Positions 12,183 to 41,465 of a stretch of DNA of 64,000 nucleotides are shown here, piece after piece. Source of the DNA: a virus (lineage: Duplodnaviria; Caudoviricetes). A program made the position numbers and the translations under genes. The DNA lies in the IMG/VR virus record IMGVR_UViG_3300046710_000261, positions 32,001 to 96,000 of that record. The stretch is one strand, 5' to 3'. Every line of letters starts with the position of its first letter. Position 1 is the first letter of the stretch. The notes under the pieces were generated by a model. It was given only the letters and a program-made list of their open reading frames with translations. It was not told the DNA's origin and ran no database searches.

Positions 12183-12419
12183 TTATTTTATTCTCCGGGC
12201 ATTCCGCTTGATCTCTGCCACATAAACATCACCCATTTCACCATCAGGGCAAATCGGAGTGACTACATCACAAAACCACCGAGCATACTCATTTTTCGCC
12301 TCTGCCTCTGGCGATTGATATTTCTTCAAAACATTCCAAGTCCAAGAATCACCAAAAGACTGCCATACTTCATATGGTTCATTTCTCTTTCGGGTTTTCG
12401 CACATTCGTTTTTCGCCAT
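12183..12419 (-). CDS. conserved phage hypothetical protein (DUF2958-like)
   Basis: WTWxV...WFCxV...EMGDVY pattern. Confidence 0.5.
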   Translation of the reverse strand: MAKNECAKTRKRNEPYEVWQSFGDSWTWNVLKKYQSPEAEAKNEYARWFCDVVTPICPDGEMGDVYVAEIKRNARRIK

Positions 12420-13001: not shown

Positions 13002-13030
13002 ATTATACCAAAAAATCGGCAAAGTGTCAA
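13002..13030 (-). promoter_or_regulatory. sigma70 promoter
   Basis: TTGACA-17-TATAAT with TG extension. Confidence 0.8.
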
Positions 13031-13856
13031 GAGAAAAATGCATTACATTTGTTGAGTAAATTCAACGAGTTTGCCAGCAGAAAAGATGTAATTGACAGGA
13101 TCATCGGAGGGAACTACCCTAAATTCCTTTGCTCCAAACCACCGAGAAAGTAAATCATTGCCATAGTCTTTGCCCTCTTGATCTGTTCCAAAACGCAGAG
13201 CATTGGCCACAAATTTCGTTTCCCCTACCGCCAAAATTTCGACTTTGAAAGACATTTTTTTCTCCTTTTTTTGTTCGGGTTCATAACCACAATTTAAGCA
13301 TCGGCCACCAAAAGTCATATGTCTTGCTTCGCAGGGTGTTATATGGGATTTCTTCACTTGTTTGTCCATATGCTGTTTATGCGTCATTTTTTTTCTCCTA
13401 TGCGGTCAAAATGTCCGATTAAATGTCCGTATAATCGAAAACAACAACCCATTTTCGATTTTTTGTGGTAAACATGAGAGGCACAAGAATGATAACACCA
13501 TCTTTTCGCTTTTTGAAATCAACGGCGTTCCTAACATCGGAGAAATATTTCCAGGCAAGGCGATTTTTGGGAATTTTCTTTCCCTTGTCTCCTGTCATTC
13601 TGGAAAGGGAAAGTTCGAATCTGGTCATTTTTTTCATGTTAATTAGCAAGAATAATGGAAAGGGTTTTTTGCGCCTTTGAGATCTTTTTTTCTACCGGCA
13701 CCATGATGGTTTTTCCTGTCCAAAACTTAAATCCACCACAAGAGCAATGTAAACCCGGGGCATGATCAACATTTCTACAAGTGAAACAAAGGTAAGTCTT
13801 ATACTCTCTCATTTTTTCCATCGTTTTTTCCTTTCCTTTCCTCATTTTCTGATTAT

Positions 13857-13917
13857 ATTATAACATTTTCTTATAAGATTGTCAAGAAAAATGTTTTTCA
13901 ATGAAATCAGGGGGTTA
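13857..13917 (-). promoter_or_regulatory. sigma70 promoter with IHF-like box
   Basis: TTGACA(13880-13885)-17-TATAAT; AATCAGGGGGTTA at 13905-13917, 19 nt from -35. Confidence 0.8.
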
Positions 13918-14248
13918 TGGGGGGTTTCGATGGTCGTTTTTCCTTCATCATACCAATTTATCGTATAATTTCCCGTAAATGTCTATGAGAAGACTATCCC
14001 ATGCACAATAATAATGCATTGGAAGGACTTTTTTCAGGGCTGGAATATATTCACACCGATTTCCATCTTTTTCTTTGATGGTTTTATTACAAATACCGCA
14101 AATTATCTTCCCCTTGTCAATACATTTACTGGAAAGAATGAAATGTTGCGTTTTTCGGCATCGAGAAAAGCCTTTTTTTGCCTCTTGAATACTATCCGCA
14201 ACGTGATAAGCGCATGCACCATTTTCCCAGGGCTTTCTAAACATTATT

Positions 14249-14737
14249 TTATCCTTTCAGTCTCATGAAAACTTCATCCAAGGGCAGAGGGCAATTTTTA
14301 ATCCATTTAATATCAGATTTTACAATCCATTTCGATAAATCAATTCCTTCAATATCAATCCCTTCAAAAATATTTAGTCTCAGGCTCTTATTTTGCGTTT
14401 CCATCTTCAAATTCAGCTTTTTGAAAGTCTCAACATCTTTTTGTTCATGAAGGGTAAGACAAATCCCATTAATATCATTCAAAACACTCAAAAAATCGGC
14501 TGTATTATCTGTTTTTGCTGTATATAAATAAATTTTAGTGTTTGTCTGGTTTCTAATCTGCCTGACGGTCTGTTTGACAAATTCGGGTCTCAATAAAGGC
14601 TCCCCTCCAGTCAACATAATTTCCGTATATCCAGAAAAATTGTCTGTCTCTGGTAATTCCTTGAGGTTCCAATCTTTATTACAACACCCCACACAATTCC
14701 TATTACAATTTTCAAATAAAAGAAGACGAAGTTTCAT
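14249..14737 (-). CDS. small radical SAM protein
   Basis: CNRNCVGC (CX3CX2C) and LTGGEP motifs. Confidence 0.85.
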   Translation of the reverse strand: MKLRLLLFENCNRNCVGCCNKDWNLKELPETDNFSGYTEIMLTGGEPLLRPEFVKQTVRQIRNQTNTKIYLYTAKTDNTADFLSVLNDINGICLTLHEQKDVETFKKLNLKMETQNKSLRLNIFEGIDIEGIDLSKWIVKSDIKWIKNCPLPLDEVFMRLKG

Positions 14738-15773
14738 ATTTTTTCGATAAAGTCCTTTCCGTCAAATTCAAATTTGCGGAATGCCTTTGATTGTTCGAAA
14801 AGTTCGGGTTCTACACCGTCAATATCCCAGGTTTTTTGTTTATCCCATCCATATCTTTTTCTTTTATATCCACCCAAAGTTCTAATCAATCTTCTCATTG
14901 CTGGCACTATGTCTTTATGCCACAGCATACCCTGTGTTTTATTTACCTTCATAAATAATGTTGGGATTTTCTCACCAAATAAAATAAAGGTCAATAATTC
15001 AGGTTTTCTCATTTTATTCCTTTCCTTATTTCTGTCTTGGAATTTTGACGGTCAAATTATATTGATAATCGGGTGAACCGTCTTCGGAAATAATGTTTCC
15101 CATTTTTTTTATTCGTGTCAGGGAAAGTCTGGGGTGAATTATAGCAAGATTTTCATTGATACTCTTGAGATTATCTTCCATATTACCAGAATGAGAAACG
15201 TCAATCAGGATATACTCATTTTTCGGCCTGATAGCAATGAAAGTCAGGCCAATGCTCCACATGAAAAGGTCGTTTCCCGCGATTTTTTTTGTCGGTCTCT
15301 GTAAAAGAAAAAGCAGGTCTTTATTGGTTGTCTTTTTCATTTCTTTACCTTTTCCTTTCGATTTTCTTGATTTGATTTTTTTTATCTATAATTTGTTTTT
15401 CTAATTGCCAAATTTGACCTTGGATTTCCATGATCTTTTGGTGTTTAGGCAATCTTGCTAATGCTTTTTGCTTTCTCTCAAAATCTTCCGCATCTGACCA
15501 TGATGCTCTACCTTCTGCTTCGGGTGTAAACATTGTTTTTTCTCTCACTTTCCTTTAAACACCATATTTTTGATAAACTTCTCGCTTCAAATTTTTGGCC
15601 AATGTATATTTTCTGATGTATTCAGAAGGGGTGCCGATGAAAGTATTATGGGGATTGTATTTCAAAGTCATAGAAACCGCAATATATAATTCCCGTAACT
15701 GTTTGATTGCTTCTTTTCTGGCTATCGTTTTCACTATCGTATGAATACTCATTTTTCCTCACTTTCTACAATA

Positions 15774-15834
15774 ATTATAACAATTTTGAAGGGTTTTGTC
15801 AAGAAAAATCTTTCAGAATGAAATCAAGGGGTTT
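15774..15834 (-). promoter_or_regulatory. sigma70 promoter with IHF-like box
   Basis: TTGACA(15797-15802)-17-TATAAT; AATCAAGGGGTTT at 15822-15834, 19 nt from -35. Confidence 0.8.
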
Positions 15835-16537
15835 CAGTAAGGGATAAAAAGGGTAAACGGGGATAAAGTAGGGATTTTTTGTATCCAATGTAGACGGGAA
15901 GATAGCGAATACCAATACCTTCGATAAAAGTCATAAGGTGGGCAGCATTATGAGGGTCAGTTTCTCTTTTTCCCTCAAAATCTTTGTTATGATGGCAATG
16001 GGTTTTTCCGAATTTAACTTGATCTGTCCAAAAATATCGTGAATTGTAAAGGTCAACTCCAAAGAGAATCACTTTTTCGTATTTCATCTGATACCACAAC
16101 TCAAAAAGCATTGTGAATGAAATTCCACCCACACAAGTCAAAATATTTTGATCTTTTTGCTCTGGCATCTTGTAATTTGGAACTGGTATTCTGGCATCAC
16201 CCAATTTTATCATTTTATACATGTAAATATCAAAGGCATCGGGACCAATCAGATCAACAATCTCCTGTGAGTGACAAATGAATTTTACATTTCTGTATTT
16301 GTCGGCTCTCTCTAAATGCCGATGTCTCCATATTACTCTATCACGGTTTTTGACTTCCACATGATAGAAGTTTGGGATGAAAGAATGATAATGGAAATTG
16401 TTTGATGTCCAAACATCAAATTTTTTCATCTTACTCCACTCTTCAGTGGTTATATCATTTATACTTTCACCACAACCAAGGAAAATAGCGGTATCAGACT
16501 TTTTTTCTTTGAATATGTCTTGTAATTTGTATATCAT
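15824..16537 (-). CDS. putative sialyl/nonulosonate transferase (GT42/Maf-DUF115-like fold)
   Basis: AIFLGCGESI, xNNF and KVILFGVDLY motifs resemble CstII/Maf GNGPS...IYLxGIDF; ATGA-coupled to neuA; start refined to 16537. Confidence 0.6.
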   Translation of the reverse strand: MIYKLQDIFKEKKSDTAIFLGCGESINDITTEEWSKMKKFDVWTSNNFHYHSFIPNFYHVEVKNRDRVIWRHRHLERADKYRNVKFICHSQEIVDLIGPDAFDIYMYKMIKLGDARIPVPNYKMPEQKDQNILTCVGGISFTMLFELWYQMKYEKVILFGVDLYNSRYFWTDQVKFGKTHCHHNKDFEGKRETDPHNAAHLMTFIEGIGIRYLPVYIGYKKSLLYPRLPFLSLTETP

Positions 16538-17196
16538 TGTAATAATTTTTCGATCATTCGGGCATCTTCGCGTGTATCGACCTGAAAACTCTCCCAATAT
16601 GAAACAATATGATACAACGGCTTCTTTCCTATTCGGCATTTTGACTTCATAAATTGTTTTCTGGTGGTAATGAAGAATGCTCCCGTTTCAATACAATATC
16701 CGCTTGCTCTATTCTGTCTTCGCCCTCTATTTTGAGGGTCATAATTTACCGGTTTGTCTTTATGGAAATCCCATATCAAAATATCGTCTGTTGGCAGAAC
16801 GCTGAAACAACAATCAAATCCAACAGGACGGGTTGTAAATTCATAAATGGCATCATCCAAATCCTTGACATTCAATAGGGGGGAAGTTGCCTGTAAAAGA
16901 ACAATTATGTCATAATATATGATAGAAGAAAAATGCTCCATAACGCTTTCAGTAGTTGAATCATCCTTTGCCAATTGATCAGGTCTGATAATTATATTTG
17001 CTCCTTTATTTCTACAAAAATCATCTATCGCCTGATTATCTGTGCTGACATATGTATTTTCTCTGCCAATATATTTACTATTGAAAGATACATCGAGCAT
17101 ATATTCAATAAGCGGTTTACCATTTATTGGATAGAGATTTTTCTTGGGGATGCCTTTGCTTCCCCCTCGCGCGGGTATGAGAGAAACTATTTTCAT
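16534..17196 (-). CDS. neuA: acylneuraminate cytidylyltransferase (CMP-sialic acid synthetase)
   Basis: IPARGGSKGIPKKN, VSTD, RPDQLAKD, LQATSP and ETGAFF motifs. Confidence 0.92.
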   Translation of the reverse strand: MKIVSLIPARGGSKGIPKKNLYPINGKPLIEYMLDVSFNSKYIGRENTYVSTDNQAIDDFCRNKGANIIIRPDQLAKDDSTTESVMEHFSSIIYYDIIVLLQATSPLLNVKDLDDAIYEFTTRPVGFDCCFSVLPTDDILIWDFHKDKPVNYDPQNRGRRQNRASGYCIETGAFFITTRKQFMKSKCRIGKKPLYHIVSYWESFQVDTREDARMIEKLLQ

Positions 17197-28580: not shown

Positions 28581-30737
28581 TTATTTTGTTTCTAAAATAG
28601 TTCTAAATTTTGATGGTTCTTTTACTGTAGGTTTCAATATTTCAGCCCAATCATCTTTTTCTTCTTCTTCCAATATTAGTCTATTGAGAAGATTGTTCAA
28701 TTCAATGCTTTCTTTCTTTGCTTTGCCATATATTTTTTCGTCTGCTTCTTTCATTTTATTGGCAAACCTTTTATCAATATGCATCATCAAATCAAAGTTT
28801 ACCGTTCCCGAACCGTGACCGATGATTTCAAGTTTGCTGATAGGAATAACTTCCTTTTTGGTTTTTGTCTGATATCCAATATATGGCAGTCTTTCAGAAT
28901 GTATCAGAACCAATCTTTCGGTTATCTCATTCCAATTCGATGTTCCAAATATTTCTTTGGATGTGTTTTTATCAAAAGATATATCACCGACCACCATTGG
29001 TTCTGACCCATCCAATGCTGATGCTATAGGCAATTCATCGGTTATCTTTTTCATCAACCCTTTTTTAAGTTTTGGGTTCTTAGCCAATTCTTCATAACAT
29101 GGAAGTCTGAAATCTCTTTCATCTTGTGCTATTCCTTCTAAGAATTTCTCAGCATTTTTATCCTTCAATGCTCTGATTGCCAAGATAGCACCCTTCATTA
29201 TTGGTCTGTTTTTTGGATTTGTAATATCATCAAATTCCAGCCCCTCTTTTTCCATATGGGCCTTTACATCTTCGTCTTTTTCCATTGCCTTCTTTACTTC
29301 TTTTTGATGTTTCAGTAGATAATCTCTTACTTTGGCTTTCTTTTTGTTTATAAATTCTGTCTGGTCGAATTTCTTATTCAGTTTTTCGTCCCATTTCTTC
29401 AATTCTCCCAAACCACCAGTTTTCAGTTTGGCATCAGCACTTTTCTTCAAAGATACTTCTTCTAATCTGACACCTTCTTTCGTTTTGATTTTGTAGAATA
29501 CATCTGCTGTGTCTTCAACATTGGAAAGAGGGTTTTGAAGACCTATTGCTTCTAGGTCTTCTGGGAAATCCCACGCGCCCGCTATAATATCTTTATCAGG
29601 ATCAAATCCCTTATTATCATATTTCCATCTTTTATGATTTGCTTCTCTATTCTTGACTGCTGCAATTAACCATGACCTATCAATAAATCCATGGTTGCCT
29701 TCTCCCCTTTCATCAAGTTTTTGTTCTACCCCTCTTTGAAATTCTGCTACTTCAGTATCATTCATACATGTTGCCATCAAAGACATTAATTCACCAGGAA
29801 GAGATGCTTCTGCTCCCTTTGGTGCCCTTCCTGTATCAGGCCCTAAGATATGAGAGAAAGTTACACCACCTTCAGTCTTTGTGTTCATCAGTCTTTCAAA
29901 TATTTGAGCATATCTTTTCGGTATCTTTCCTTTTTCAATACATGCCATTTTAGGAAATACATATGGCTTTCCTGGCATATTCAAGTTTTTCCCGCTGAAG
30001 TTGTTGTTTCGTTCTGTAAATTCTTTATTTGATTCTTTTAGATTTCTTGTATATTCTTTTTCTTTTGCAGTATCAACTTTGACAAGAGTTTTATTTTTGC
30101 CTTTGATTATTCTTTCTTCTGTTTCATATTTTGGTTTTCCAACTGCTGTTTTTACTTTTGAGGGTTTTACATTCCCTTTGGTTTCGGCATTTCCTTTGAT
30201 GGCCCCTGCCTTTTGATCGTTACTGCCGGCTTCTTTATCTGACTTGGATTTTGTGGTTTCTCCACGTTGTTCTTGTTCGGTCCCTTTCCCTGATTTGACA
30301 TTTTTCTCCCCTCCTGGAACTTCTTTTTCCAATGCTTTTTTAACCTTTGATGGTTTTTCTTCTTCAGGTTCCTCTTTTGGCACTTGCCCTGGTTTCAACC
30401 CTTTTTCTTTTTCAATCTGTTTGATTTTTGCTTCTTTTTCATCATTTTCCTTTTTCTTTGCTTCTAATTCACCCTGGCCCTTATCGCCACCACCTACAGC
30501 TTTCTTTACCTTTGATTCCCCTGGTTCTTTTTCCTTTCCTGATAATTCTTTCCCTGCTTCTCCTGCCTTTTTGGTTACTTTTTTATCTGTTCCCTTGTGG
30601 GTTTGAAGATATTCTTTTTGGGCATTGAAACTAAGGTCAGTCCACCATGCAGGATATTTGGGGTCGCTCTTTGACCTTTCTGCTTTCTTGAATGGTGCCT
30701 TTACTTTTTCATTTAGCAAGAAATTTCTTATTTTCAT
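28581..30737 (-). CDS. 718-aa putative internal virion protein with Lys/Glu-rich linker and nuclease-like C-terminal domain
   Basis: MKIRNFLLNE tag, WWxxLSxxxQxxYLxxH motif, TAD...EVSLKK PD-(D/E)XK-like motif. Confidence 0.6.
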   Translation of the reverse strand: MKIRNFLLNEKVKAPFKKAERSKSDPKYPAWWTDLSFNAQKEYLQTHKGTDKKVTKKAGEAGKELSGKEKEPGESKVKKAVGGGDKGQGELEAKKKENDEKEAKIKQIEKEKGLKPGQVPKEEPEEEKPSKVKKALEKEVPGGEKNVKSGKGTEQEQRGETTKSKSDKEAGSNDQKAGAIKGNAETKGNVKPSKVKTAVGKPKYETEERIIKGKNKTLVKVDTAKEKEYTRNLKESNKEFTERNNNFSGKNLNMPGKPYVFPKMACIEKGKIPKRYAQIFERLMNTKTEGGVTFSHILGPDTGRAPKGAEASLPGELMSLMATCMNDTEVAEFQRGVEQKLDERGEGNHGFIDRSWLIAAVKNREANHKRWKYDNKGFDPDKDIIAGAWDFPEDLEAIGLQNPLSNVEDTADVFYKIKTKEGVRLEEVSLKKSADAKLKTGGLGELKKWDEKLNKKFDQTEFINKKKAKVRDYLLKHQKEVKKAMEKDEDVKAHMEKEGLEFDDITNPKNRPIMKGAILAIRALKDKNAEKFLEGIAQDERDFRLPCYEELAKNPKLKKGLMKKITDELPIASALDGSEPMVVGDISFDKNTSKEIFGTSNWNEITERLVLIHSERLPYIGYQTKTKKEVIPISKLEIIGHGSGTVNFDLMMHIDKRFANKMKEADEKIYGKAKKESIELNNLLNRLILEEEEKDDWAEILKPTVKEPSKFRTILETK

Positions 30738-30738
30738 A

Positions 30739-30957
30739 TTAATTCCTTAATAATCTATGAATTATATCATCATATTCTTTTTTAAGATTTAGTATTTTAG
30801 AAAGCACACTTTCAGCATAATCCAATTGTCTTTTATTTTTTGCATCAGTAATAACATCTATTTTCTTATCTATTATATTGATTTCTGCTATAGTAACTTG
30901 ATAACTATTCTTTTCAAATTCTGTATTTTTTTCATTTATGAATATGTTGAATTTCAT
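30739..30957 (-). CDS. small protein with capsid-targeting-like N-terminus
   Basis: MKFNIFINE. Confidence 0.6.
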   Translation of the reverse strand: MKFNIFINEKNTEFEKNSYQVTIAEINIIDKKIDVITDAKNKRQLDYAESVLSKILNLKKEYDDIIHRLLRN

Positions 30958-30965
30958 ATTTTATC

Positions 30966-31853
30966 CTAATATAACATCATCAATTTATTTTCTACTTTAT
31001 CATACTCATCCAAAAAACCTTTGAATTTATTCCTGCTAAAGAATTTATACATATTACTTGGATTGGGTAATTCGTATGTTTCATATTGGTTCAAAATCCT
31101 CTTTCTTATTACTTGAGGGATTTTTCTAAAATCAACTAAAATTTTATTTGCCTTATATCTTTCTACAAGGTTGTTATCTTCAATCCACTTTTCAACACCT
31201 TCCGCCATAACAACTCGAAGCATTTTATCACCAAATGATGGTTTTCTCTTTCCTGCTGGCCAATCTAAAGGTGTTCTTATATTGAATATATCGTCTTTCT
31301 TCTGCCCCATCAAACATAATTTAGCAATAAATTTTTCTGTATTTTCTTCCTTTATATATGTCTCTTCATTAGGGCAAAACAATTTTACATTTGGCAATCC
31401 TGTCAGTTGAAGAAAATCTTCATCATTGGAAATAATGACATAATCATTCTCTGGTTTATCCATACATAATATAGCGATTATATCATCTGCTTCTGCCGAT
31501 TGAATTTTTATTGTTTTGAACGGCAAATTTTCTCGTAACTCATCTGTAAAATTATTCAATTCATCAAAAAATACTTGCCAGTTGACACCTTTTGTTTTAT
31601 CTCTTTGTATTTTCCTGGATTCTTTATATCTTTTCCAGTACACTTTTCTCCAAGAGATAAAATCATCAACCGCCAGAACTACACCAGAGACATTATTCGC
31701 CTTATATAAAGAACGATATACATTATTGATAATCATGTATTTCCATAACTGGAAGTTTGGTTCCGCTTGTTCCAAACTTACTTCTTTTGTGAAAAATACT
31801 CTGTATACAAGATTGTTGAAATCAACCAAAATTACATTTTTTCTATCCAACAC
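30966..31853 (-). CDS. rnh: T4 RNase H-like 5'-3' exo/flap endonuclease
   Basis: LVDFNN, WRK...YK..R, EADDII, ISNDEDFLQL and GQKKDDI motifs. Confidence 0.9.
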   Translation of the reverse strand: MLDRKNVILVDFNNLVYRVFFTKEVSLEQAEPNFQLWKYMIINNVYRSLYKANNVSGVVLAVDDFISWRKVYWKRYKESRKIQRDKTKGVNWQVFFDELNNFTDELRENLPFKTIKIQSAEADDIIAILCMDKPENDYVIISNDEDFLQLTGLPNVKLFCPNEETYIKEENTEKFIAKLCLMGQKKDDIFNIRTPLDWPAGKRKPSFGDKMLRVVMAEGVEKWIEDNNLVERYKANKILVDFRKIPQVIRKRILNQYETYELPNPSNMYKFFSRNKFKGFLDEYDKVENKLMMLY

Positions 31854-31865
31854 AATATCAAACCC

Positions 31866-32087
31866 CTATTCCTTTGCTTCAAGTCTTTTTTTAAGTTGCT
31901 CTATTTTTTCTTTTTTTGCCTTCACAAGATAATCATCATAGGGCTTCCAATCTCCCTTCCTGCTTTTTTTCATTGTTGCTATATCTTTTTCTAACTCTTT
32001 TATTTGTATTCTTATTCCCTCTTTTTTATCATTGCCTTCATTTAGAAAATTGTCAATTTTTTCGGTTATATTCATTACTTTCTCCAT
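31866..32087 (-). CDS. small coiled-coil protein with capsid-targeting-like motif
   Basis: EKIDNFLNE near the N-terminus; promoter at 32094-32122. Confidence 0.6.
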   Translation of the reverse strand: MEKVMNITEKIDNFLNEGNDKKEGIRIQIKELEKDIATMKKSRKGDWKPYDDYLVKAKKEKIEQLKKRLEAKE

Positions 32088-32135
32088 CCTACTATTATAC
32101 CATAAAACTTGTCAATTGTAACCATCAAATTATTG

Positions 32136-32774
32136 TTATTTTATATGTCTTTTTTGCTTCCCTTCCATATAAACCATTTGATTTGCTCTGAATATTGGAG
32201 AGCCTTTACAGATCATTCCCCAATGCTCATACTTCTCCCCTGTATCGTCTTGATCGTGCCATCTGTCGTTTAATAATTGATAACTTAACCATGTTCTGCG
32301 GGGATCAGATGGGTCTTCAAAATAAAATTTCTGGTCATCATATCCTATTGCCACAACATAATGTCCCTCATTCCATATATCATTATATGTAAATCCTATT
32401 TGATGTCTTTTATCATAATCTGCCCATGCTTGTAAAGTTATTATGACAGGCCAACCATTATCAATAGAATTTTTAAGGTCATCTATTGTCAACCCACTTC
32501 TTGTTTCTACATCTATACCATAATATGTTGCCCCCACAATTAAACTTGTAACGGGTGTCCCATGCTCGGGTGATGATCCTAATTGTTTCATTATCATCTC
32601 TTCTCTCATATCCAAACCATAATATGCCAGAACAGATTGTAATGATAATGCTCCACAGTCATAATCATATGCTTGGCGCAATTCGGGGAAGTCCAAAACT
32701 TTTGCTGTTTTGGGTATTACTCCAACTGCCCCTCCGCCAATTTGTTCATCTACTATATATTTTTTTAGGCGCAT
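32136..32774 (-). CDS. C39-family cysteine peptidase
   Basis: QxxxYDCG, GHYVVAIGYD and FEDP motifs; MRLKKYIVDE N-terminal tag. Confidence 0.88.
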   Translation of the reverse strand: MRLKKYIVDEQIGGGAVGVIPKTAKVLDFPELRQAYDYDCGALSLQSVLAYYGLDMREEMIMKQLGSSPEHGTPVTSLIVGATYYGIDVETRSGLTIDDLKNSIDNGWPVIITLQAWADYDKRHQIGFTYNDIWNEGHYVVAIGYDDQKFYFEDPSDPRRTWLSYQLLNDRWHDQDDTGEKYEHWGMICKGSPIFRANQMVYMEGKQKRHIK

Positions 32775-32777
32775 TGT

Positions 32778-33110
32778 TTATACCGTTATTGCTCTATTGA
32801 TTTTGTTGATAGCATCTTTAACACTATTTACTGTTGTCTTACGAAATTTTATTCTACCTGAAATATATTCTATAATACCAGCATATGAATAGTGGAGTTT
32901 TACATAGTTAGAATTTTCTATTATTCCACTAATCCATTTTTCCTTTGGGTCAAGAGATATAGTTATCAATATTGATGTACGATGTTCCCCACCAAGAGTG
33001 CTTTTATATACCTTGACATAAGGTGCTTTTATTCCTGTTTTCAGTTTTTCTATTGCTGAATCCGCTTCTTCTGGCGTAAATGATTCGGTTATATATTTTT
33101 GTAGTCTCAT
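32778..33110 (-). CDS. hypothetical protein with capsid-targeting-like N-terminus
   Basis: MRLQKYITE; start refined to 33110. Confidence 0.65.
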   Translation of the reverse strand: MRLQKYITESFTPEEADSAIEKLKTGIKAPYVKVYKSTLGGEHRTSILITISLDPKEKWISGIIENSNYVKLHYSYAGIIEYISGRIKFRKTTVNSVKDAINKINRAITV

Positions 33111-33111
33111 T

Positions 33112-33288
33112 TTAATTCCTCTCTTCAATGAGATATTTGTCTACTAATTGGTCTATACTTTCCTTTTTCATCATTGGTTTCATTCCCTTCATTCCACACT
33201 TTGGACAACTGCTTCTATATGATGAAAATTCAGATTGTAATGTATGACCGCAATGACTACATTTAAATTCATTTTTATGTGTTTCCAT
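33112..33288 (-). CDS. 58-aa zinc-ribbon protein with C-terminal DKYLIE tag (not in ORF track)
   Basis: Manual translation METHKNEFKCSHC...CPKC...KKESIDQLVDKYLIEERN; TAATG-coupled to cca. Confidence 0.65.
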   Translation of the reverse strand: METHKNEFKCSHCGHTLQSEFSSYRSSCPKCGMKGMKPMMKKESIDQLVDKYLIEERN

Positions 33289-34730
33289 TATCGTGATTCT
33301 CCATTTTTTACTAATTGATGAGAATAATAGTCTATAATCAGTTTGTCAATTTCCTTTTCATCGGTAATGCCGTGATCTAAAACATATTCGGTTACATACT
33401 TTATTATCTCACCGACCTGTTTCCCTGGTTTCATTCCAGTAAGTTTCATGACATTATCGCCACTTACTATCTTCACCGTATTATTTATGACTTTCTGCCC
33501 AAACTTTTCCTTCGTCTCTATTGCCTTGTTCACGATTTCTTCAAATTCGTGACTATCCATAAATTGCTCACCACGGGATGCCCAGTCTGCTTTAGCAACA
33601 GCAACCAGAACGTCCCAATTCTTATCTGTGGCAATCTTGAAAATTTTGCTTGGTTTCATATCCATTATTTTATGAAACTTCATATGATTAGCAACAGCAA
33701 AGAAAAGTTTTTCTTTTTCATCATTGCTGAACTTCAATCTATCACCAATCTGGTTGACTAAATCTATACCCTTCTCTTCATGCTCAAGGTATGTTGGTGT
33801 TCCATCTGGTTTTCGAGCAAATGTAATACCCTTGCCTACATCATGCAATAAAATTGCTATATTGATAAGAGGGTCTTTGAGTTTGTTTGCTTTCAATGCT
33901 GATAAAATATGTTGCCAAACATCACCTTCGGGGTGATGTTCTATTTTCTGTTCCATTCCTTTCAGTTTGGTAATTTCGGGAAGTATCAATTCCAATATTC
34001 CCATTTCATCAAGATAGATAAGATACTTTGCAAATTTATCTCCTGTCTGTCCCGCTGCTTTCCATATTTCGTCCTTTACTCTTTCCACAGAAAGTTTCAA
34101 TATGTTTGGTGCTAAATCTTTAACTGCTTTGCTTGTTTCGGGGTCTATTTCTAAATCAAATCTGGATGCAAATCGCGCTGCCCTCATCATACGAAGATGG
34201 TCTTCACCAAATCTGTCTCTTGGATTTCCAACAGTTCTCAAAACTTTATTTTTTATATCCTTCTGCCCGTCAAAGTAGTCAATGATATTTCCATCTTTAT
34301 CAACTGCCATTGCATTGATAGTGAAATCTCTTCTTTTTGCATCTGCTTCAAATGACACAGCGACCTTCACGCTCTCGGGTCGTCTGCCATCGAGATATTC
34401 TCCATCTTCTCTAAATTGAGCAACTTCAAAACTATGCCCCTCTTCTCTGACAACTACTATACCAAAATCTTTTGATTTACCTATGTCATATGTTTTGTAT
34501 AGTTTTTGAAGTTCTTCAATGGGCATGTTGGATGCTATATCAATATCATGTGGATCTATGCCCAAGATAATATCTCGCACACTTCCGCCCGTTATGTATG
34601 CTTCATAACCTTTAGCAGTAATTTTTTCTAAGACTTTGATGGCGGCACGGAGCATAGAATTAGATTTGACATATGCTTGCCATTTTTTGAGTTGTTCTGC
34701 TTCAAATAGATAAAATCGTCTGAAGTCCAT
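33288..34730 (-). CDS. cca: class II CCA-adding tRNA nucleotidyltransferase with HD domain
   Basis: GGSVRD, DIDI, RRDFTINAM, EDHLRMMRAARF, HHPEGDVWQH and LLHDVGK; flexible loop DGEYLDGRRP; lacks the PAP signature. Confidence 0.9.
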   Translation of the reverse strand: MDFRRFYLFEAEQLKKWQAYVKSNSMLRAAIKVLEKITAKGYEAYITGGSVRDIILGIDPHDIDIASNMPIEELQKLYKTYDIGKSKDFGIVVVREEGHSFEVAQFREDGEYLDGRRPESVKVAVSFEADAKRRDFTINAMAVDKDGNIIDYFDGQKDIKNKVLRTVGNPRDRFGEDHLRMMRAARFASRFDLEIDPETSKAVKDLAPNILKLSVERVKDEIWKAAGQTGDKFAKYLIYLDEMGILELILPEITKLKGMEQKIEHHPEGDVWQHILSALKANKLKDPLINIAILLHDVGKGITFARKPDGTPTYLEHEEKGIDLVNQIGDRLKFSNDEKEKLFFAVANHMKFHKIMDMKPSKIFKIATDKNWDVLVAVAKADWASRGEQFMDSHEFEEIVNKAIETKEKFGQKVINNTVKIVSGDNVMKLTGMKPGKQVGEIIKYVTEYVLDHGITDEKEIDKLIIDYYSHQLVKNGESR

Positions 34731-35359
34731 TAGTATATAAACTCCCCCACCTGATGAACCGTTATATTAAAGGTGCTAAAAAGAATGAGAACTTCTTTCA
34801 GGCATTCATTCTTTCCACCACCACAAATATAAGACCCCTGCCATTGCTTTAGAAAACCAATATTTATTTCTCCTGGAAGAAAAATGGGTTCACTATACCA
34901 GACACTACTTTCTTTACGCCATGGTGCAATATGTTTTGGTGTTCCTCCAGATTCGGCATCTAAATTGGGTATTGCTTTTCGCCAATCTTCTTCTTCTATA
35001 TCTCTGGAATCGGTAACTCTTTTTTCCAGCATAAAACGAATTGCTTTCTTCAATGTTCCTGGTTCTATACCTATATCCATCCAGCCCCGAAAGAAACCAT
35101 ATCCCTTATCTATATATTCAGCATCTTCTACTTTGGCTTCATTCATATCATAATCATATAACCAATTTTTTATTGAGTCTTTATTATCTTCTGAACCAAC
35201 GGTTTCCCCATTATAGAAAAACAGAAGATTTCGCTGAACATTCAAAAATTCAACAAAGGCATTCATTTTAAAGTGAATATATTTTTTATATTGAGGTTGA
35301 ACGTCAACGATGATAACATTATTTGTTCTCTTATCTGAAATGAATTGTTGAAGTCTCAT
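34730..35359 (-). CDS. isochorismatase/cysteine-hydrolase-like protein
   Basis: VIIVDVQP and CGGGKNECL; MRLQQFISD N-terminus. Confidence 0.55.
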   Translation of the reverse strand: MRLQQFISDKRTNNVIIVDVQPQYKKYIHFKMNAFVEFLNVQRNLLFFYNGETVGSEDNKDSIKNWLYDYDMNEAKVEDAEYIDKGYGFFRGWMDIGIEPGTLKKAIRFMLEKRVTDSRDIEEEDWRKAIPNLDAESGGTPKHIAPWRKESSVWYSEPIFLPGEINIGFLKQWQGSYICGGGKNECLKEVLILFSTFNITVHQVGEFIY

Positions 35360-35360
35360 T

Positions 35361-35585
35361 CTACCACCTTGGCATTTTGCCTGATGCTTCTTTCTTCAAA
35401 TAATCAATGGCAAATTTCATTAATGCCTTATTTACACTTCTTGTTCCTGGTGGATGAAGGATTTTGTTCATTCTCGCAAATATTTCATCAAGTTCTTCAT
35501 CTATTGCTTTTTTTATAAACTCTTTCTTTTCTTCGTCCGATGCTTCAACTTCATCATATTCTGTTAGATATTTGTTTAGCTTCAT
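35361..35585 (-). CDS. small protein with capsid-targeting-like N-terminus
   Basis: MKLNKYLTE. Confidence 0.6.
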   Translation of the reverse strand: MKLNKYLTEYDEVEASDEEKKEFIKKAIDEELDEIFARMNKILHPPGTRSVNKALMKFAIDYLKKEASGKMPRW

Positions 35586-35642
35586 TTCACTTCCTTTTTC
35601 GAAAATGCATTCACAGCTTTTAGCACTTTTATTATTTTATTA

Positions 35643-35942
35643 TTATTTCGTTGGAGTTGTCGTTGTTGGTTGTGATAGTGTACCGCTTGCTACACCATTT
35701 AAGAATTTGTAGCCGAATTCTGCTCCTGCAACAGACAAACCACCAATGATCACGAAATGCACCCAATTAAACGGTGTTGTATTGTATCCTGTTTCAGCAA
35801 GGGCCAAAAGAACAGTTATAAGACCAGCCGCCGGCTGTACTGCCCAACTTGGCAACCATTTCTTTATATATTGAGTAACTAAAATCGTGAACGACCCGAT
35901 TTCCAATATAGCATTAATATCTATAAAACTTGGTAGTGGCAT
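35643..35942 (-). CDS. multi-TM membrane protein, possible holin
   Basis: About three hydrophobic segments and VTQYIKK motif; same region as the GH108 endolysin. Confidence 0.45.
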   Translation of the reverse strand: MPLPSFIDINAILEIGSFTILVTQYIKKWLPSWAVQPAAGLITVLLALAETGYNTTPFNWVHFVIIGGLSVAGAEFGYKFLNGVASGTLSQPTTTTPTK

Positions 35943-37525
35943 TTTATCACCTCACTATACTTTCGATTTAATCTTTGATATAATATTCTCAATAAAAGTC
36001 TTTGCATCCCCTGCCAATTGAGAACTGATTTTCTCTAAATCTGGAATAGTATCTAAAATCAAATGATTTTTTATTGTTTCGATCTCTGCACCAACTGTTA
36101 ACCATTGGTTGTCAAAATATGTTTTGACTGATTTATTTTGAAAATAGTTGACAACAATTATTATAACACCAATTACACCTACTGCTCCCAAATATAAAAG
36201 TTCCATTGTATTTCCCTCCTACAATTATTTTATGTGGTTTACTACATTGTTAATATAATCACTCTCTCCTAAAAGGTCAAATTATTTTACTTTTCTCATA
36301 TAATTTCCATCTTTTGTTCTTACCCAAAATGGACGGTTATATCTTGTTTTCTGCATATATTGAGTTATTGCATCACTTGACTTAAATCTCAATCTCTGTC
36401 TGTCTGCTCGCAAATTGTTATAAAAATCATCTGTCTCTACATCAAATACAGGAAGATCTTGTTTCATACCATCTGCAAAAATATCATCTACATCTGTTGC
36501 AATCTTTCCGGGCTCAACACTTCCCTTATCATGTGTCGCCACCGTCGCGTCTTGCTCCGGTGATGTTCCTGTTCCATATCCTAATTCACCCATTTTATTT
36601 TCCTCCAATTCTTACATATCTATCATGAAAATCTGCCAAATCTTTAGCAGTATGTTCTCGCCTTCCGATCTTCTTCTTATCTTTATCTTTTGGTTTCTTT
36701 CCGAAGATTTTTTTAACAGTATCTTTTATTCCTTCATTCGTGCTTCCTAATAAGAATTTTTCTATTTTTCTTTCTATTGTTTCACTCACTCCAAATATTG
36801 GGTTGTCTTCATATATTTCCTTTACCAATTTCATGATTATCTCATGAACTTCATCTGGTGTCTTAACCTTATATTCATCTACCATACTGGTTAATCGGGC
36901 AAGGGCCATCCAATATAAACGAGCACTCTCGTCCCCATTTGTGGCTAAATCGCCCACAATCTTGAATGTCATGTTTTTTATCTCTTCTGTTATAATCATA
37001 ACTACATTCTTTTTATGAGAAATACATCAACAAGATAACTAAAATTGTTCCTACTAAACCTAATCCCAACATATCATTATCTCCTATAAATAAAATTTAT
37101 AAATCAAACCAAGTGCTACAAAAAGAATTATCGTTCCGACTAATAGTAATAATGGTTTACTCATTTTTCCTGTTTCTCCATTGTAATAATATTTTTTATA
37201 TGTTTCAAAATTCTGCCGATGATGCCTATCTTTTCATCTTTAGGCGCATCGTCTTTTCTGATTTCAATCCAATGACCTATCTTTGATGGATTATGGGGCC
37301 TAAACACATTTCTCATCATTCTGTATCTTACTCTCATTTGTGGATTTGCTTTAACATAATACCATAGGAGAGCAGACCTAAATCCTCTTCTCTTCATTAT
37401 TTCAGCAATAGCATTGAACTTTTCTGCATATTCAGGCGGTTCAACTTCCTCTGGATGTTGTAATTTATCCAATAAAAAGAACAAACAAAAATCTGCAAAT
37501 TCTGATGCTGAAAGTGTAAGTTTCA

Positions 37526-38062
37526 TTATGCCAATCCTTTTATATGTTCTGGTCGAACCACTTTAAAAAATTCTTCCATATCAAAAAATTCTGCTCTAAT
37601 TAAATCTTTATAAGTTACTGTAAGGCTTTCTGGTAATTCTATTTGTTGACTTAATGAATTTACAGTAATAACATCAACTGCCAGAATTATATTCTTACCT
37701 TTCTTTTTAAATATCAACATTCCTCTTTTTTCTGCTTTAGTTGCATCTCTTGTGCATTGCTTCCAAAACTCTTTTATTTCATCATTCTTTAAACTTTTAA
37801 AATGTTTCCAGAAATCTGCTTGCGGGTATCCAGTTTTTACTTCAATGCTGAATTTATCAGTCAAAAATTCTGCTTCTGGTGCTAACGAAATTATATCTCC
37901 CGAAGTATTTTCTCGTTCTTTTGATATTGTCTGTAATACACCAGAGCTTGGTGAACGCCAATATAAATAAGGCGATTCTTTGCCTGATACCCACTTTGTT
38001 AAAATCTTTGCAATCTTCCGTTCAAATTCACTACCTTTTGCTTTACCATTTGACATATACAC
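37526..38062 (-). CDS. Holliday junction resolvase-like PD-(D/E)XK nuclease
   Basis: GKAKGSEFER, RSPSSG, GDI, SIEVK and WxQ motifs. Confidence 0.8.
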   Translation of the reverse strand: MYMSNGKAKGSEFERKIAKILTKWVSGKESPYLYWRSPSSGVLQTISKERENTSGDIISLAPEAEFLTDKFSIEVKTGYPQADFWKHFKSLKNDEIKEFWKQCTRDATKAEKRGMLIFKKKGKNIILAVDVITVNSLSQQIELPESLTVTYKDLIRAEFFDMEEFFKVVRPEHIKGLA

Positions 38063-38065
38063 CTC

Positions 38066-38413
38066 TTAATCGTGTCTTTCAGAACTTTTTTCTCTTTTTA
38101 TGGATATTATCTTGAACCCGTGTTTGGTCAATTCATCTCTCACTTCTTTTTCTGTTTTCCTTCCTGTTCTTGTGTCTTTCAGCTTCTGCCCGTATTTATC
38201 TTCATATTCTACTTTCCAATCAGGCTCTTCTTTTTTCTGCTCTGGTTTTTCTCCCTGTTCTTTAGATGGTTTGTATGTTGACCTGGAAGCCGCTTTAATT
38301 GCACTATGACTATATGGGCTTCTTTTACTTCCAGAATATGTTGCTCCTCCTCTTCCACCACGGGGCTTCCAATCTGCTTCGTTCAAATATTTTTCTATAA
38401 TTTTATCTATCAT
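38066..38413 (-). CDS. basic protein with capsid-targeting-like N-terminus
   Basis: MIDKIIEKYLNE. Confidence 0.6.
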   Translation of the reverse strand: MIDKIIEKYLNEADWKPRGGRGGATYSGSKRSPYSHSAIKAASRSTYKPSKEQGEKPEQKKEEPDWKVEYEDKYGQKLKDTRTGRKTEKEVRDELTKHGFKIISIKREKSSERHD

Positions 38414-38422
38414 AATATTCTC

Positions 38423-39016
38423 CTAAAAATTTACATCTTGATATGAATTTTCATCGGCATATCCCAATTTTGTCCACATTTCATCTTCTGCTTTTGAAAG
38501 TCCTTTATATGAACCCATTTTTTTACCATCCATATAGAAATCGACTTCTTTGCCATATTGATGAAATGGTGAATCACTTACCAGTTCTATTAGATGCTTT
38601 CTCTTATTTCTATCATATAATTCCTTGAAATTTACATATGGGTCATTACTTGAATATTTTCTTTCCTTGAATGCTTCTCTTCCTGGCATCCAAGTATCTT
38701 TCGATCTTCTCTCGCATAGTAGAAATTTATTCATTCTTATTGTTATATCTTCCTTTTTGACTTTCTTGGGCTTATCTGTTGCGTGCATACATTGAGGGCA
38801 AAGTTCTCCGCGAGGCCACCTATTAGGGTTGGCCTTATCGCCCAATGGTGTATCGGGCAAATTGGGATCGGGCACAAATATATCTTTCATTAATCTCTTA
38901 CACTTCTTACATCTTTTAGGCCCAGGATCTTTATTTGACAAGTCTTGGAAACTGGAGATATCATCTACCGCGCCCATAAATTCTTCGTTTGTCAACATAT
39001 GCTTTTCTCTATACAA
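38423..39016 (-). CDS. Zn-binding hypothetical protein with internal NKFLLCE motif
   Basis: CKKC..CPQC; KKEDITIRMNKFLLCE. Confidence 0.55.
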   Translation of the reverse strand: MYREKHMLTNEEFMGAVDDISSFQDLSNKDPGPKRCKKCKRLMKDIFVPDPNLPDTPLGDKANPNRWPRGELCPQCMHATDKPKKVKKEDITIRMNKFLLCERRSKDTWMPGREAFKERKYSSNDPYVNFKELYDRNKRKHLIELVSDSPFHQYGKEVDFYMDGKKMGSYKGLSKAEDEMWTKLGYADENSYQDVNF

Positions 39017-39248
39017 GACTGTCTACATCCTTATCATACATTACTTGTTTAGTAGTCATCATTTTCTTTAAGTCTTCAAGATGTTTTCGAAAAGAGTCAA
39101 TCTCCACCTGAATTTTTTTCGGAACAACTACATTATTGAATTGTTCTTCCTCATGAAAGAAAGTGGATATATCCTTATCTGAATTGGGATATGTGAAATT
39201 GAACTCCGCACTACTCAATTCTTCTTTTAAAAACTTATTTAATCTCAT
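39009..39248 (-). CDS. small protein with capsid-targeting-like N-terminus
   Basis: MRLNKFLKE. Confidence 0.6.
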   Translation of the reverse strand: MRLNKFLKEELSSAEFNFTYPNSDKDISTFFHEEEQFNNVVVPKKIQVEIDSFRKHLEDLKKMMTTKQVMYDKDVDSLV

Positions 39249-39262
39249 ATGTAAATCTCCTA

Positions 39263-40129
39263 TTATAATCCATATCTTGCTTTCGTTGCATTGTAAAGTT
39301 GTTCTCTGGTCATTCCTGAATAAGTTCCATAGGCGTTAAACCAAAGTGTTTCTCCAAGAATACCATCTAAAGATCCTGTCCCCGCAGGTGCTTGTGCTCC
39401 TATATAAAATAATTGTGAGTTTGGCTCAGAGGGAGTATATAAAGTACCCGCTGGAACGTCAAGGGCTACTCCATCAATAGAAATAACCGCTCCAACATTT
39501 CTGTCAATTTCGTACCCAAATAAACGCCAACCTGTTATTGAAGTTGGAGTATTACTTACAAAATAACGAAGTCCTGGTGGTGATGGTGCTGGAAATATGT
39601 TGTTTTCCGCAAATACAGCACCTGTAGAAAAATTAGGAGCCATAAACATAAACCCGCCTGATAATGATGGGGATGAGAATGGAAAAATATTAAACAAAAT
39701 CTGGGAACTCCCATTATTCGTAAGATTTGCCCAAAAGAAATAAGCAAAGTCACTGGCTCCAAATTGTAGAGAAGGAGCAAGGGGTACTGAAACATACTTC
39801 CCAGTTGTCCCATCAAATTCTAAACCTAAAAGTCCAAATGTAGCCACATTGACTGTTCCATTATTTCTATAACTAGAATGATCTATTGCTGTCCCATCCC
39901 AGTAAGCATGATAGAGAACACAATCCGAATCTACTGGAAGATATGGTGAAACAATAATTTGTTCCAATTGATTATGAACAATTTCTTTTGCCAATATTTG
40001 ATCATTTCCAGAAAGCCCACTAAGATTATTATGAATAATTTTATCAGCTAAATCTTTTTCATTTGCTGGAACATTCCAAATATTATTATGAATAATATCA
40101 TCTGCTAAATTTTTATTTGTATATGACAT
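39263..40129 (-). CDS. LamG/concanavalin-A-like domain protein with three N-terminal repeats
   Basis: DHSSYRNNGT, LEFDG, FFWAN, IDG and IGA..G.LGE pattern; repeats LADDIIHNN/LADKIIHNN/LAKEIVHNQ. Confidence 0.7.
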   Translation of the reverse strand: MSYTNKNLADDIIHNNIWNVPANEKDLADKIIHNNLSGLSGNDQILAKEIVHNQLEQIIVSPYLPVDSDCVLYHAYWDGTAIDHSSYRNNGTVNVATFGLLGLEFDGTTGKYVSVPLAPSLQFGASDFAYFFWANLTNNGSSQILFNIFPFSSPSLSGGFMFMAPNFSTGAVFAENNIFPAPSPPGLRYFVSNTPTSITGWRLFGYEIDRNVGAVISIDGVALDVPAGTLYTPSEPNSQLFYIGAQAPAGTGSLDGILGETLWFNAYGTYSGMTREQLYNATKARYGL

Positions 40130-40330
40130 TTATTCTTTCTCCCTGCACGTTGTGCATTTTCTGTTTGGCTCGTCTGGATGAAATGATTGAAATGTTTTTC
40201 CACATCCAGGACATTTTACTTGCTTTGATTTTACTGCTCCCCGATTTTTTATTGCTATCATTGAACCTTTAGACATTCTTGGTTTCAATCCTTCTATTAA
40301 ATATTTATCTATTATTTTGTTTATATCCAT
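40130..40330 (-). CDS. zinc-ribbon protein with capsid-targeting-like N-terminus
   Basis: MDINKIIDKYLIE; CPGC..CTTC. Confidence 0.6.
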   Translation of the reverse strand: MDINKIIDKYLIEGLKPRMSKGSMIAIKNRGAVKSKQVKCPGCGKTFQSFHPDEPNRKCTTCREKE

Positions 40331-40857
40331 ATTATTTGTCCTTTTTTGAACATCATATATAACCTGAAATATATTTCCCACTGGGTTCTATTATGATTTA
40401 CTTTCAGATTATCTTTCAGGCATAGTGTAATTAAATTGTTTGGATGGCAATGTCTCTTATTATAATCAATATGATGAACAATATTTCCATATTCCATACA
40501 AAGTTGACAAGTATAATTGTCTCGTTCACGAATTTGAGTTTTTAATTTATGGTCAAATTCTTGTGGATATTCATCAAAAGAAACGCCACCTTTCCAATTT
40601 GAATTATTTTCTCCTTTTGTTTTTTCTTTCATTAATGCTGAATGTTCGGGTCTTTTCTTTCCAAAAAATGGATGTTTTTGCCCTATTCTTTTTTTATTTC
40701 TTTCCGATACATCAGGTCTTTTCTTTCCTGTATTCCATGGGATTTGTCCTTTATGAGCAATGCTTAAATTTTTTATATGCTCTTCTGAAAACACTTTCCC
40801 CATATGTGCTATACTTAACTTTCTTTTATGCTCTTCTGTCACTATTTTCCTTCCCAA
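40321..40857 (-). CDS. NUMOD3-HNH homing endonuclease
   Basis: Repeated EEHxxxLSIAHxG, NWKGG, RERDNYTCQLC, VHHIDYNK and NLITLC. Confidence 0.88.
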   Translation of the reverse strand: MGRKIVTEEHKRKLSIAHMGKVFSEEHIKNLSIAHKGQIPWNTGKKRPDVSERNKKRIGQKHPFFGKKRPEHSALMKEKTKGENNSNWKGGVSFDEYPQEFDHKLKTQIRERDNYTCQLCMEYGNIVHHIDYNKRHCHPNNLITLCLKDNLKVNHNRTQWEIYFRLYMMFKKGQIIWI

Positions 40858-41390
40858 ACAAATTGGTATTGTTGTATTCTATGCATCCACCCTCGCGCCC
40901 ACTGCGCCTGTGATGGCTTGTTAGCAATTATTTCTTTATAATGTATATATTTTTCACAATTGATCGTTGTGAAAAAGGCCCTTCTATCTTTTTGGCCCCA
41001 TTTGTTTATCAAATTGATTGTTATCGGGCCAATAGCACCATCTACTGTAATGATTTCTTCTAAATGAACTAATGCTTTTTGCGCTATTTTTCCAGGGGCA
41101 CCCTGACCCATATTTACACAACAATCAAAAAGTGTTGCTGATATATACTTGTCGCTTATCAAATCAAGTTTTACATCTTGATAATACATGACAAAATAAA
41201 TTTGTTTTGCTTCATCTGCTGTAAGGTTCTTTACAACATTATGAGAAACAATTCCTCTTCTATATGCTTCATCAAGAGTTATATGAGTAATTCCAAACTT
41301 TGTTTCCCCGCCCGGGTCTCCAGGATCATTACTATATCCACCTTCTAAATCCAATGTCTGTGATACAGCATAATTGAAATTCTCCGTCAT
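40842..41390 (-). CDS. GH108 endolysin with peptidoglycan-binding domain
   Basis: EGGYSNDPGDPGGETKFGIT, FDxxVNMG, VDGAIGPIT and GWxxR motifs. Confidence 0.92.
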   Translation of the reverse strand: MTENFNYAVSQTLDLEGGYSNDPGDPGGETKFGITHITLDEAYRRGIVSHNVVKNLTADEAKQIYFVMYYQDVKLDLISDKYISATLFDCCVNMGQGAPGKIAQKALVHLEEIITVDGAIGPITINLINKWGQKDRRAFFTTINCEKYIHYKEIIANKPSQAQWARGWMHRIQQYQFVWEGK

Positions 41391-41465
41391 AATATTCTCC
41401 CATGGACATTATATTTCTCTATTATTTATAAAAATTATATAAGAATGGTGGGGAGAATGGTAGTA

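Follow-up and report, generated by a model that had tools for sequence, protein, structure and literature searches.

A leader resembling the T4 capsid targeting sequence on otherwise unrelated proteins of an uncultured T4-like phage

The DNA considered here, referred to as the window, is a whole stretch of 64,000 nucleotides corresponding to bases 32001-96000 of a 155,948-bp IMG/VR virus contig (IMGVR_UViG_3300046710_000261) from an uncultured T4-like phage, and the genes in question are eleven minus-strand genes in 28581-40330 whose products begin with a common peptide of ~9 residues, hereafter the tag or leader. Gene coordinates follow window numbering unless marked as genome, and the genes of the whole contig derive from a simple gene call. 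The contig has a G+C content of 35%, is rated ~70% complete and encodes a T4-type replication set; in particular, its polymerase is gp43-like, with an identity of at most ~29% to cyanophage and T4-group polymerases, and is accompanied by a clamp loader, a Dda-like helicase and a DnaB-like helicase, together with a gp32-like protein and a class II ribonucleotide reductase that were assigned by eye from the translations. A megablast comparison of the cluster with GenBank phages gave zero matches, so the cluster has no close cultured relative there. The tagged genes of the window are given below with the leader of each product and, for some, its score on a position matrix that was trained on 25 tags of the contig and spans only the 8-residue core.

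28581..30737, minus strand: 718-aa protein, leader MKIRNFLLNE
30739..30957, minus strand: 72-aa protein, leader MKFNIFINE; matrix score 11.8 at residue 1
31866..32075, minus strand: 69-aa protein, long leader MNITEKIDNFLNE; 32087 is an alternative start of the open reading frame (ORF)
32136..32774, minus strand: 212-aa papain-like Peptidase_C39_2 peptidase, leader MRLKKYIVDE
32778..33110, minus strand: 110-aa protein, leader MRLQKYITE, the true start being an inner ATG; matrix score 23.3
33288..34730, minus strand: 480-aa CCA-adding tRNA nucleotidyltransferase with HD domain, leader MDFRRFYLFE
34730..35359, minus strand: 209-aa protein of a widespread phage family, leader MRLQQFISD, Asp-ended
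35361..35585, minus strand: 74-aa protein, leader MKLNKYLTE; matrix score 20.8
38066..38413, minus strand: 115-aa protein, long leader MIDKIIEKYLNE; matrix score 16.4 at residue 4
39009..39248, minus strand: 79-aa protein, leader MRLNKFLKE; matrix score 20.0
40130..40330, minus strand: 66-aa zinc-ribbon protein, long leader MDINKIIDKYLIE; weak phrog_5602 match

The tag occurs in a short form, M-[RK]-[LFI]-x-x-[FY]-[LI]-x(1-2)-E, and in a long form, x-D-K-I-[ID]-x-[YF]-L-x-E, and its most conserved positions are 3 (Leu, Phe or Ile) and 6 (Tyr or Phe). Ten of the eleven window tags terminate in [LIYF]-x(1-2)-E and the remaining one in Asp. An earlier note, made from the letters of the window, had listed these eleven N-terminal tags, and all of them were found on the minus strand; its figure of ~14 proteins is too low, since ~30 tagged genes are present contig-wide, in five places (genome 60.6-72.4, 104.5-113.5, 140.3, 142.4-145.3 and 147.6 kb). 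The same note had not seen the tag in early regions, in agreement with its absence from genome 1-60 kb and 73-104 kb.

A genome-wide check of N-terminal motifs, proposed at that time, bears out the tag. The loose regular expression [RK][LIFM]..[FY][LIVYM].{1,2}[ED], counted in the first 9 residues, gives 18 matches among 298 protein N-termini, where the rate inside the proteins predicts 0.55; of the nine 'internal' matches, three lie near an N-terminus and are probably true starts of genes that were called too long. The strict tag is found in 19/298 coding ORFs and in 0/529 other-frame ORFs (Fisher p = 3e-9), and a matrix scan of ~44,000 contig positions places 22 of the 23 top-scoring ones at N-termini.

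Beyond the tag, the window proteins were described in the earlier note as otherwise unrelated, and BLAST after removal of the tags finds no links among them; the sole link leads from the C39 peptidase to a tagged paralogue outside the window, at genome 105185-105763. In this peptidase the Pfam domain (PF13529, E 2.8e-14) starts at residue 27, and in the 110-aa protein the phrog_3308 match begins only at residue 29. The 480-aa protein matches PolyA_pol (E 8.5e-34), PolyA_pol_RNAbd and HD, and in its alignment to the Geobacillus CCA enzyme 1MIV residue 28 meets chain residue 6, which corresponds to an N-terminal extension of 22 residues. The phrog_3308 match from residue 29 and the extension of the CCA enzyme therefore mark the leader as an add-on to varied cargo. 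The 72-aa protein (30739-30957) has no family match and the 115-aa protein (38066-38413) none in Pfam or PHROG. The 718-aa protein consists of a disordered, K/E-rich N-terminal third and a conserved C-terminal domain of ~490 aa, and it likewise gives no Pfam or PHROG match; its AlphaFold2 model, built with 8 homologues, is poor (predicted local distance difference test, pLDDT, 57), and a Foldseek search against the PDB finds nothing below E = 0.3.

The tag is conserved as a peptide and not as a nucleotide signal. Position 3 uses five kinds of Leu codon (CTA, CTT, TTA, TTG and CTC) that differ at the first and third positions, substitutions stay within a residue class (Phe/Tyr at position 6, Leu/Ile/Met at position 7), and the tag is retained in relatives with 24%, 30% and 33% G+C; the Leu codons, the class swaps and the retention across G+C therefore argue for selection on the peptide. 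It is extremely improbable that the conservation lies instead at the nucleic-acid level, as a translation-initiation or regulatory RNA element or a recombination linker, or that the tag is a remnant of paralogy. In favour of such an origin, the tag codons are A-rich compared with the genome average, A-ending codons being preferred (AGA 16/19, ATA 11/12, CTA 7/19), and paralogy does exist among tagged genes outside the window, with paralogue families in the group at 104-113 kb. A preference for A-ending codons is usual at the 5' ends of genes and does not account for the pattern of the tag. The changes that keep residue class (F/Y, L/I/M), the 0/529 other-frame ORFs, the persistence of the motif in phages of 24-35% G+C and its occurrence also inside a capsid protein, described below, count against this origin. 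A nucleotide-level signal was rejected on the varied Leu codons and the other-frame ORFs, and simple paralogy because the window proteins are alike only in the tag.

The leaders are also found in related phages. The closest large relative, G001, is a 189-kb record whose DNA polymerase is 56% identical to that of the contig, and when its 58,264 positions are scored with the contig-trained matrix, none of the 12 best lies beyond residue 12 of its protein. Homologues of tagged proteins that are common to the contig and G001 retain leaders written with different letters, as in the RimK-like ligase (MRLKYYITE and MGIKQYLTE) and in the zeta-like kinase (MRLGGFIDE and MRLDSYIAQD), and the paralogue families at 104-113 kb likewise keep the leader in their G001 homologues. 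A tagged 476-aa protein of G001 was considered as a CCA enzyme and rejected, being the RimK orthologue. For the eleven tagged proteins of the window no homologues were found in G001, which indicates that this island turns over quickly. Among 70 homologues of the 209-aa protein, most of those with at least ~35% identity begin with M-[RK]-[LF]-x-x-[YF]-[LI]-x-E, and 27 of the 70 score at least 8 on the matrix; some members carry a T4-like MKTFKQLLTE, and the remotest homologues are without a leader and start at the conserved VVDVQP core.

The head operons of relatives connect the leader with capsid maturation. A Peptidase_S77 protease was found in five related records, and in G003, another record of the G001 phage (identical terminase) that extends further, the order of the head module is Portal_T4, GNAT, a 775-aa protein, Peptidase_S77, a 95-aa protein, the T4_CASP scaffold and Gp23. 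Leaders are carried by the GNAT (MRYQAFLNE), the 775-aa protein (MKVKDYLINE) and the 95-aa protein (MNVETKISKLLKE). Both leader forms are present between the portal and capsid genes of relatives, where strict-leader ORFs amount to 14/98 against 9/301 elsewhere in the same loci (p = 1.4e-4), and the MNITEKIDNFLNE leader of the 69-aa window protein nearly matches MNITSKIDEFLSR and MIIDKIDNYLNE of small proteins encoded between the relatives' protease and scaffold genes. In G004, a homologue of the 718-aa protein (28% over 467 aa, E 2e-47) is encoded directly between portal and protease and bears the long leader MNIDDLITNYLCE; the short leader of the window protein and the long one of this homologue therefore show that the two forms are interchangeable on homologous cargo. 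The other 718-aa homologues bear different h-x-E leaders, and between the 718-aa protein and the relatives' 775-aa post-portal family hhalign finds no homology.

In a search against solved structures, the G003 capsid protein aligns its NKYLTE/GGD to LTE65/AEIGGD of T4 gp23 (the slash standing for the maturation site), and the deposited mature T4 gp23 chain in the PDB starts exactly past Glu65. By this alignment, the Y-L-T-E half of the tags is the sequence of the relative's capsid maturation site; KYLTE in the leader of the 74-aa window protein is that G003 sequence. Across the clade the capsid propeptides read ...MLEN[EQ]xx[YF][LIM]xE/[AST]G (65 proteins, 45 distinct N-terminal sequences). 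The relatives' proteases themselves begin ...KLITE, and T4 gp21 has an LIE site near its N-terminus (PMC9026906).

The same loci contain further genes. The leader-bearing GNAT lies directly after the G003 portal gene (L046:7931-8425, minus strand) and is a candidate packaged acetyltransferase. The G003 protease gene (L046:3295-4965, minus strand) has an in-frame intein with a LAGLIDADG domain and a 557-aa product; those of G004 and G006 are uninterrupted (202-218 aa). A trio of PrkA kinase, DUF444 (YeaH-like) and SpoVR adjoins the large terminase gene (L019:10093-16622, minus strand; G004 12027-16836) and in G001/G003 is interleaved with HNH and GIY-YIG homing endonucleases; more generally, the relatives' head and replication modules are rich in HNH-type homing endonucleases.

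In T4, the capsid targeting sequence (CTS) is carried by IPI, IPII and IPIII and N-terminal propeptides by Alt and gp24, all of which are removed by gp21 (Mullaney & Black 1996, reviewed in PMC9026906 and PMC3012670), with a cut consensus of (L/I)-x-Glu (PMC9026906). The CTS and L/I-x-E cleavage rules are established (PMC9026906, PMC3012670): in the T4 sequence MKTYQEFIAE, targeting requires Y4 and F7, processing requires I8 and E10, and an Asp at the cleavage position blocks processing and not targeting (PMC9026906). One residue out of register, T4 Y4, F7, I8 and E10 correspond to L3, Y/F6, L/I7 and E9 of the contig tag. As a control, the N-termini of 210 ORFs in the first 135 kb of the T4 record were scored with the contig matrix; the top seven are ipIII, ipII, gp61.1, gp2, gp55.3, inh and gp24, five of which are known head-internal or gp21-cleaved proteins (hypergeometric p = 5e-6). 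The contig tag and the T4 CTS are related and not identical peptides. T4 gp61.1, the third of these N-termini (54 aa; L053:18966-19130, minus strand), begins with the CTS-like MKTFKEFIKE.

The correspondence of residues bears on the possibility that the head protease, or some other protease, removes the leader as a propeptide which for most of its bearers is no packaging address; examples would be enzymes held inactive until late infection, or a situation in which few tagged proteins reach the virion. Only the h-x-E half is directly tied to a protease, through the capsid-protein alignment, two tagged proteins are themselves C39-like peptidases, and the large enzymes, together with a sigma-70-like promoter inside the cluster, suit a cytoplasmic role. 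The conserved Arg/Lys2, Leu3 and Tyr/Phe6, on the other hand, match the targeting and not the cleavage residues of T4 (PMC9026906), the T4 protease is active inside the prohead, and tagged genes are located in head operons, so a propeptide of this kind seems quite unlikely.

The function of the leader as a docking peptide for another partner, such as a modifying enzyme of the leader-guided (RiPP-like) maturase type, a ubiquitin-like conjugation system or another sorting route, is judged very unlikely. The genome does contain a radical-SAM gene and a ubiquitin-like cassette; however, no partner gene was seen to accompany the tags, and the leader offers no conserved Cys, Ser, Thr or Lys as a modification site. 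The motif is moreover a capsid maturation site that is also found on head-operon proteins, and the matrix picks out T4 head proteins. Nor is there a modifying enzyme among the families that Pfam and PHROG recognise in the cluster, a result obtained with no systematic co-occurrence test across genomes.

The timing of expression was considered from two promoter-like features.

41423..41430, minus strand: TATAAATA, a T4-type late-promoter-like box, 33 nt before the lysozyme gene 40842-41390
32094..32122, minus strand: sigma-70-like promoter with extended -10, GTTACA-17-TATAAT preceded by TG, in the 60-nt gap ahead of 31866-32075

The lysozyme gene heads the minus-strand run that includes the cluster. 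Within 60 nt upstream of the relatives' genes, TATAAATA is found at 19/52 scaffold genes and 11/42 portal genes, from which it follows that the clade uses T4-type late promoters, and similar boxes precede three other tagged groups of the contig; genome-wide, the count of TATAAATA is at chance (29 seen, ~37 expected), so that the box carries information only by its enrichment at those scaffold and portal genes. The sigma-70 scan barely exceeds shuffles (78 vs 61). Late expression of the cluster, as supposed in the earlier note, is therefore plausible on the strength of one box ahead of it, and the sigma-70-like promoter inside it points the other way.

Taken together, these comparisons support the proposal of the earlier note that the shared peptide is a T4-type capsid targeting sequence joined to a prohead-protease cleavage site, to which we assign a probability of about 0.7; the grounds include its identity with the capsid maturation site, the leaders in the relatives' head operons and the place of the 718-aa homologue. 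The tagged proteins would probably be a protein cargo that reaches the host together with the DNA. On the model of T4 IPI-III, Alt and gp24, the leader would bind each tagged protein to the scaffolding core during prohead assembly, a gp21-type serine protease would cleave [FY]-[LI]-x-E on the C-terminal side of its Glu, and the mature protein would be retained in the head with the DNA and enter the host cell at infection; the window cluster would be one of several variable 'cargo islands' of the phage. Targeting, cleavage, packaging and injection are thus steps that we infer for the tagged proteins from these likenesses.

Several observations weigh against the capsid-targeting interpretation. 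It entails ~30 cargo species, several of 450-720 aa, far above the T4 load, and one tag is Asp-ended, which the T4 protease does not cut. To our knowledge, CCA-adding enzymes, NUDIX hydrolases and RimK have not been reported as virion proteins. The matrix gives the T4 CTS MKTYQEFIAE a score of only 6.5, and IPI and Alt are missed. The sigma-70-like promoter, a good one, argues that at least the distal part of the cluster (the 69-aa, RNase H/FEN, 72-aa and 718-aa genes) may be transcribed early as well. The earlier note expected a gp21-like protease elsewhere in the genome, and the PF03420 search of the contig was negative, in a contig that is ~70% complete; no head genes were recognised on it, the family searches for PF03420 and gp23 (PF07068) finding none in this incomplete sequence, where a scaffold was likewise not found. 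PF03420 and PF07068 are equally absent from G001 and present only in other records.

Among the tagged cargo of the window, Pfam matches were obtained for the CCA-adding enzyme with HD domain and for the C39-like peptidase; the 209-aa protein has a weak isochorismatase-like lead and is possibly isochorismatase-like, and the others are the 718-aa protein and seven small proteins, one of them a zinc ribbon. Elsewhere on the contig the tagged cargo includes the second C39 peptidase, a zeta-toxin-like kinase, a NUDIX hydrolase, RimK with a Zn protease and a GP88-family protein. The effectors named in the earlier note thus hold for the nucleotidyltransferase, the peptidase and the zinc ribbon (66 aa); the nuclease is untagged, and the 'hydrolase' is a lead only.

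Two further zinc-ribbon proteins were reported to contain internal or C-terminal copies of the tag.

33112..33288, minus strand: 58-aa zinc-ribbon protein with a long-form tag at the C-terminus, …IDQLVDKYLIEERN (IDQLVDKYLIE)
38423..39016, minus strand: 197-aa zinc-ribbon protein with internal RMNKFLLCE, a doubtful copy; matrix score 5.0, background

The copy in the 58-aa protein resembles by eye the long leaders MDINKIIDKYLIE and MIDKIIEKYLNE and is unranked by the matrix of the 8-residue core. It is the only one of the four copies in the earlier note to resemble the tag (DQLVDKYLIE): RMNKFLLCE (5.0) and IEKFLLG (5.6) score at background level, and NRLILE of the 718-aa protein is a bare h-x-E site. 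The G004 homologue likewise ends in ...NRLISILTE, and these paired C-terminal h-x-E sites hint faintly at C-terminal trimming of the 718-aa family; T4 Alt is also trimmed at its C-terminus (PMC9026906).

The cluster also contains genes without the tag, namely a PDDEXK nuclease (37526-38062), a FEN/RNase H and two small membrane proteins. The small hydrophobic proteins in mid-cluster, at 35643-35942 (99 aa) and 35955-36206 (83 aa) on the minus strand, could be holin-like or membrane proteins, as could a possible 19-codon membrane mini-ORF in the 161-nt gap 37000-37160. The 288-aa protein at 39263-40129 (minus strand), also inside the cluster, has a weak laminin-G/concanavalin-like match and a repeated N-terminal motif, …NLADDIIHNNI.N.PA…, that recurs in a 518-aa protein at genome 125367-126923 (plus strand), whose gene is preceded by TATAAATA; the two may be tail-fibre paralogues. 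An HNH-type homing endonuclease-like gene (40321-40857, minus strand) separates the lysozyme gene from the first tagged gene, and its 3' end is overlapped by the inner ATG of the 66-aa gene at 40330.

A wider proposal can be formulated, in which a clade-wide, portable address code of two forms would load the head with tens of individual enzymes, an immediate-early kit comprising CCA-adding tRNA repair, ribosome-modifying, nucleotide-hydrolysing and peptidase activities. In addition, the form of leader that a protein bears, or its possession of one of the rare C-terminal copies, would decide its fate (small core-associated protein or enzyme, copy number, processing), and the cargo islands would turn over fast between relatives; in this complete form the proposal is speculative and rather unlikely. 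Loading by a CTS is itself textbook T4 biology, and the novelty lies in its scale in an uncultured clade, in the enzymes among the cargo and in the pair of leader forms; no description of large CTS arrays in uncultured T4-like phages was found in the open-access literature searched, which is not proof of novelty. If the capsid-targeting interpretation is true, a nine-residue motif would allow the proteins that an uncultured T4-like phage takes into its host to be predicted with nothing but the sequence, and metagenomic contigs could be read for candidate injected effectors and counter-defence enzymes. A further consequence would be that the T4 loading system handles many large enzymes, which is relevant to the use of heads as protein-delivery vehicles; the gain would lie in scale and cargo, not in mechanism.

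The closest known system is the CTS of T4, which has been suggested in reviews to let T4-like phages load varied proteins (PMC9026906, PMC3012670). As in T4, the bearers of a ~10-residue leader are otherwise unrelated, the (L/I)-x-Glu of the leader comes after hydrophobic or aromatic residues spaced three apart, and the cut site is the same as that of the major capsid protein, shown here in relatives, which possess a T4-type protease, scaffold and portal. The bearer genes lie beside a lysozyme gene in both cases: T4 ipII and ipIII adjoin the lysozyme gene e and nudE, and the window cluster follows the lysozyme-like gene 40842-41390, named by eye. In contrast to the T4 CTS, the contig tag is one residue shorter and has Arg/Lys-Leu at positions 2-3, and a second, longer leader form is added. 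Bearers number ~30 here and 5-8 in T4, and the T4 cargo consists of small basic proteins, whereas that of the contig, known from genes alone, includes recognisable enzymes.

In the giant phages phiKZ, 201phi2-1 and SPN3US, dozens of head-internal proteins are similarly cut after Glu by a gp21 homologue (gp175/gp245), and large cargo is ejected into the host (PMC9026906, PMC5694885). Their sites are (S/A/G)-x-E, in contrast to those described here, and their propeptides are long and mutually dissimilar. We know of no short N-terminal address shared by the proteins of these giant phages. Polyvalent proteins and the Dar system of P1 provide a further parallel, where enzymes and anti-defence domains travel inside the head and enter the host by injection (Iyer et al. 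2017, PMC5512222); in those systems, however, many domains are joined in one giant polypeptide or loading depends on DarA/Hdf, whereas in the phage considered here the cargo is encoded by separate short-tagged genes.

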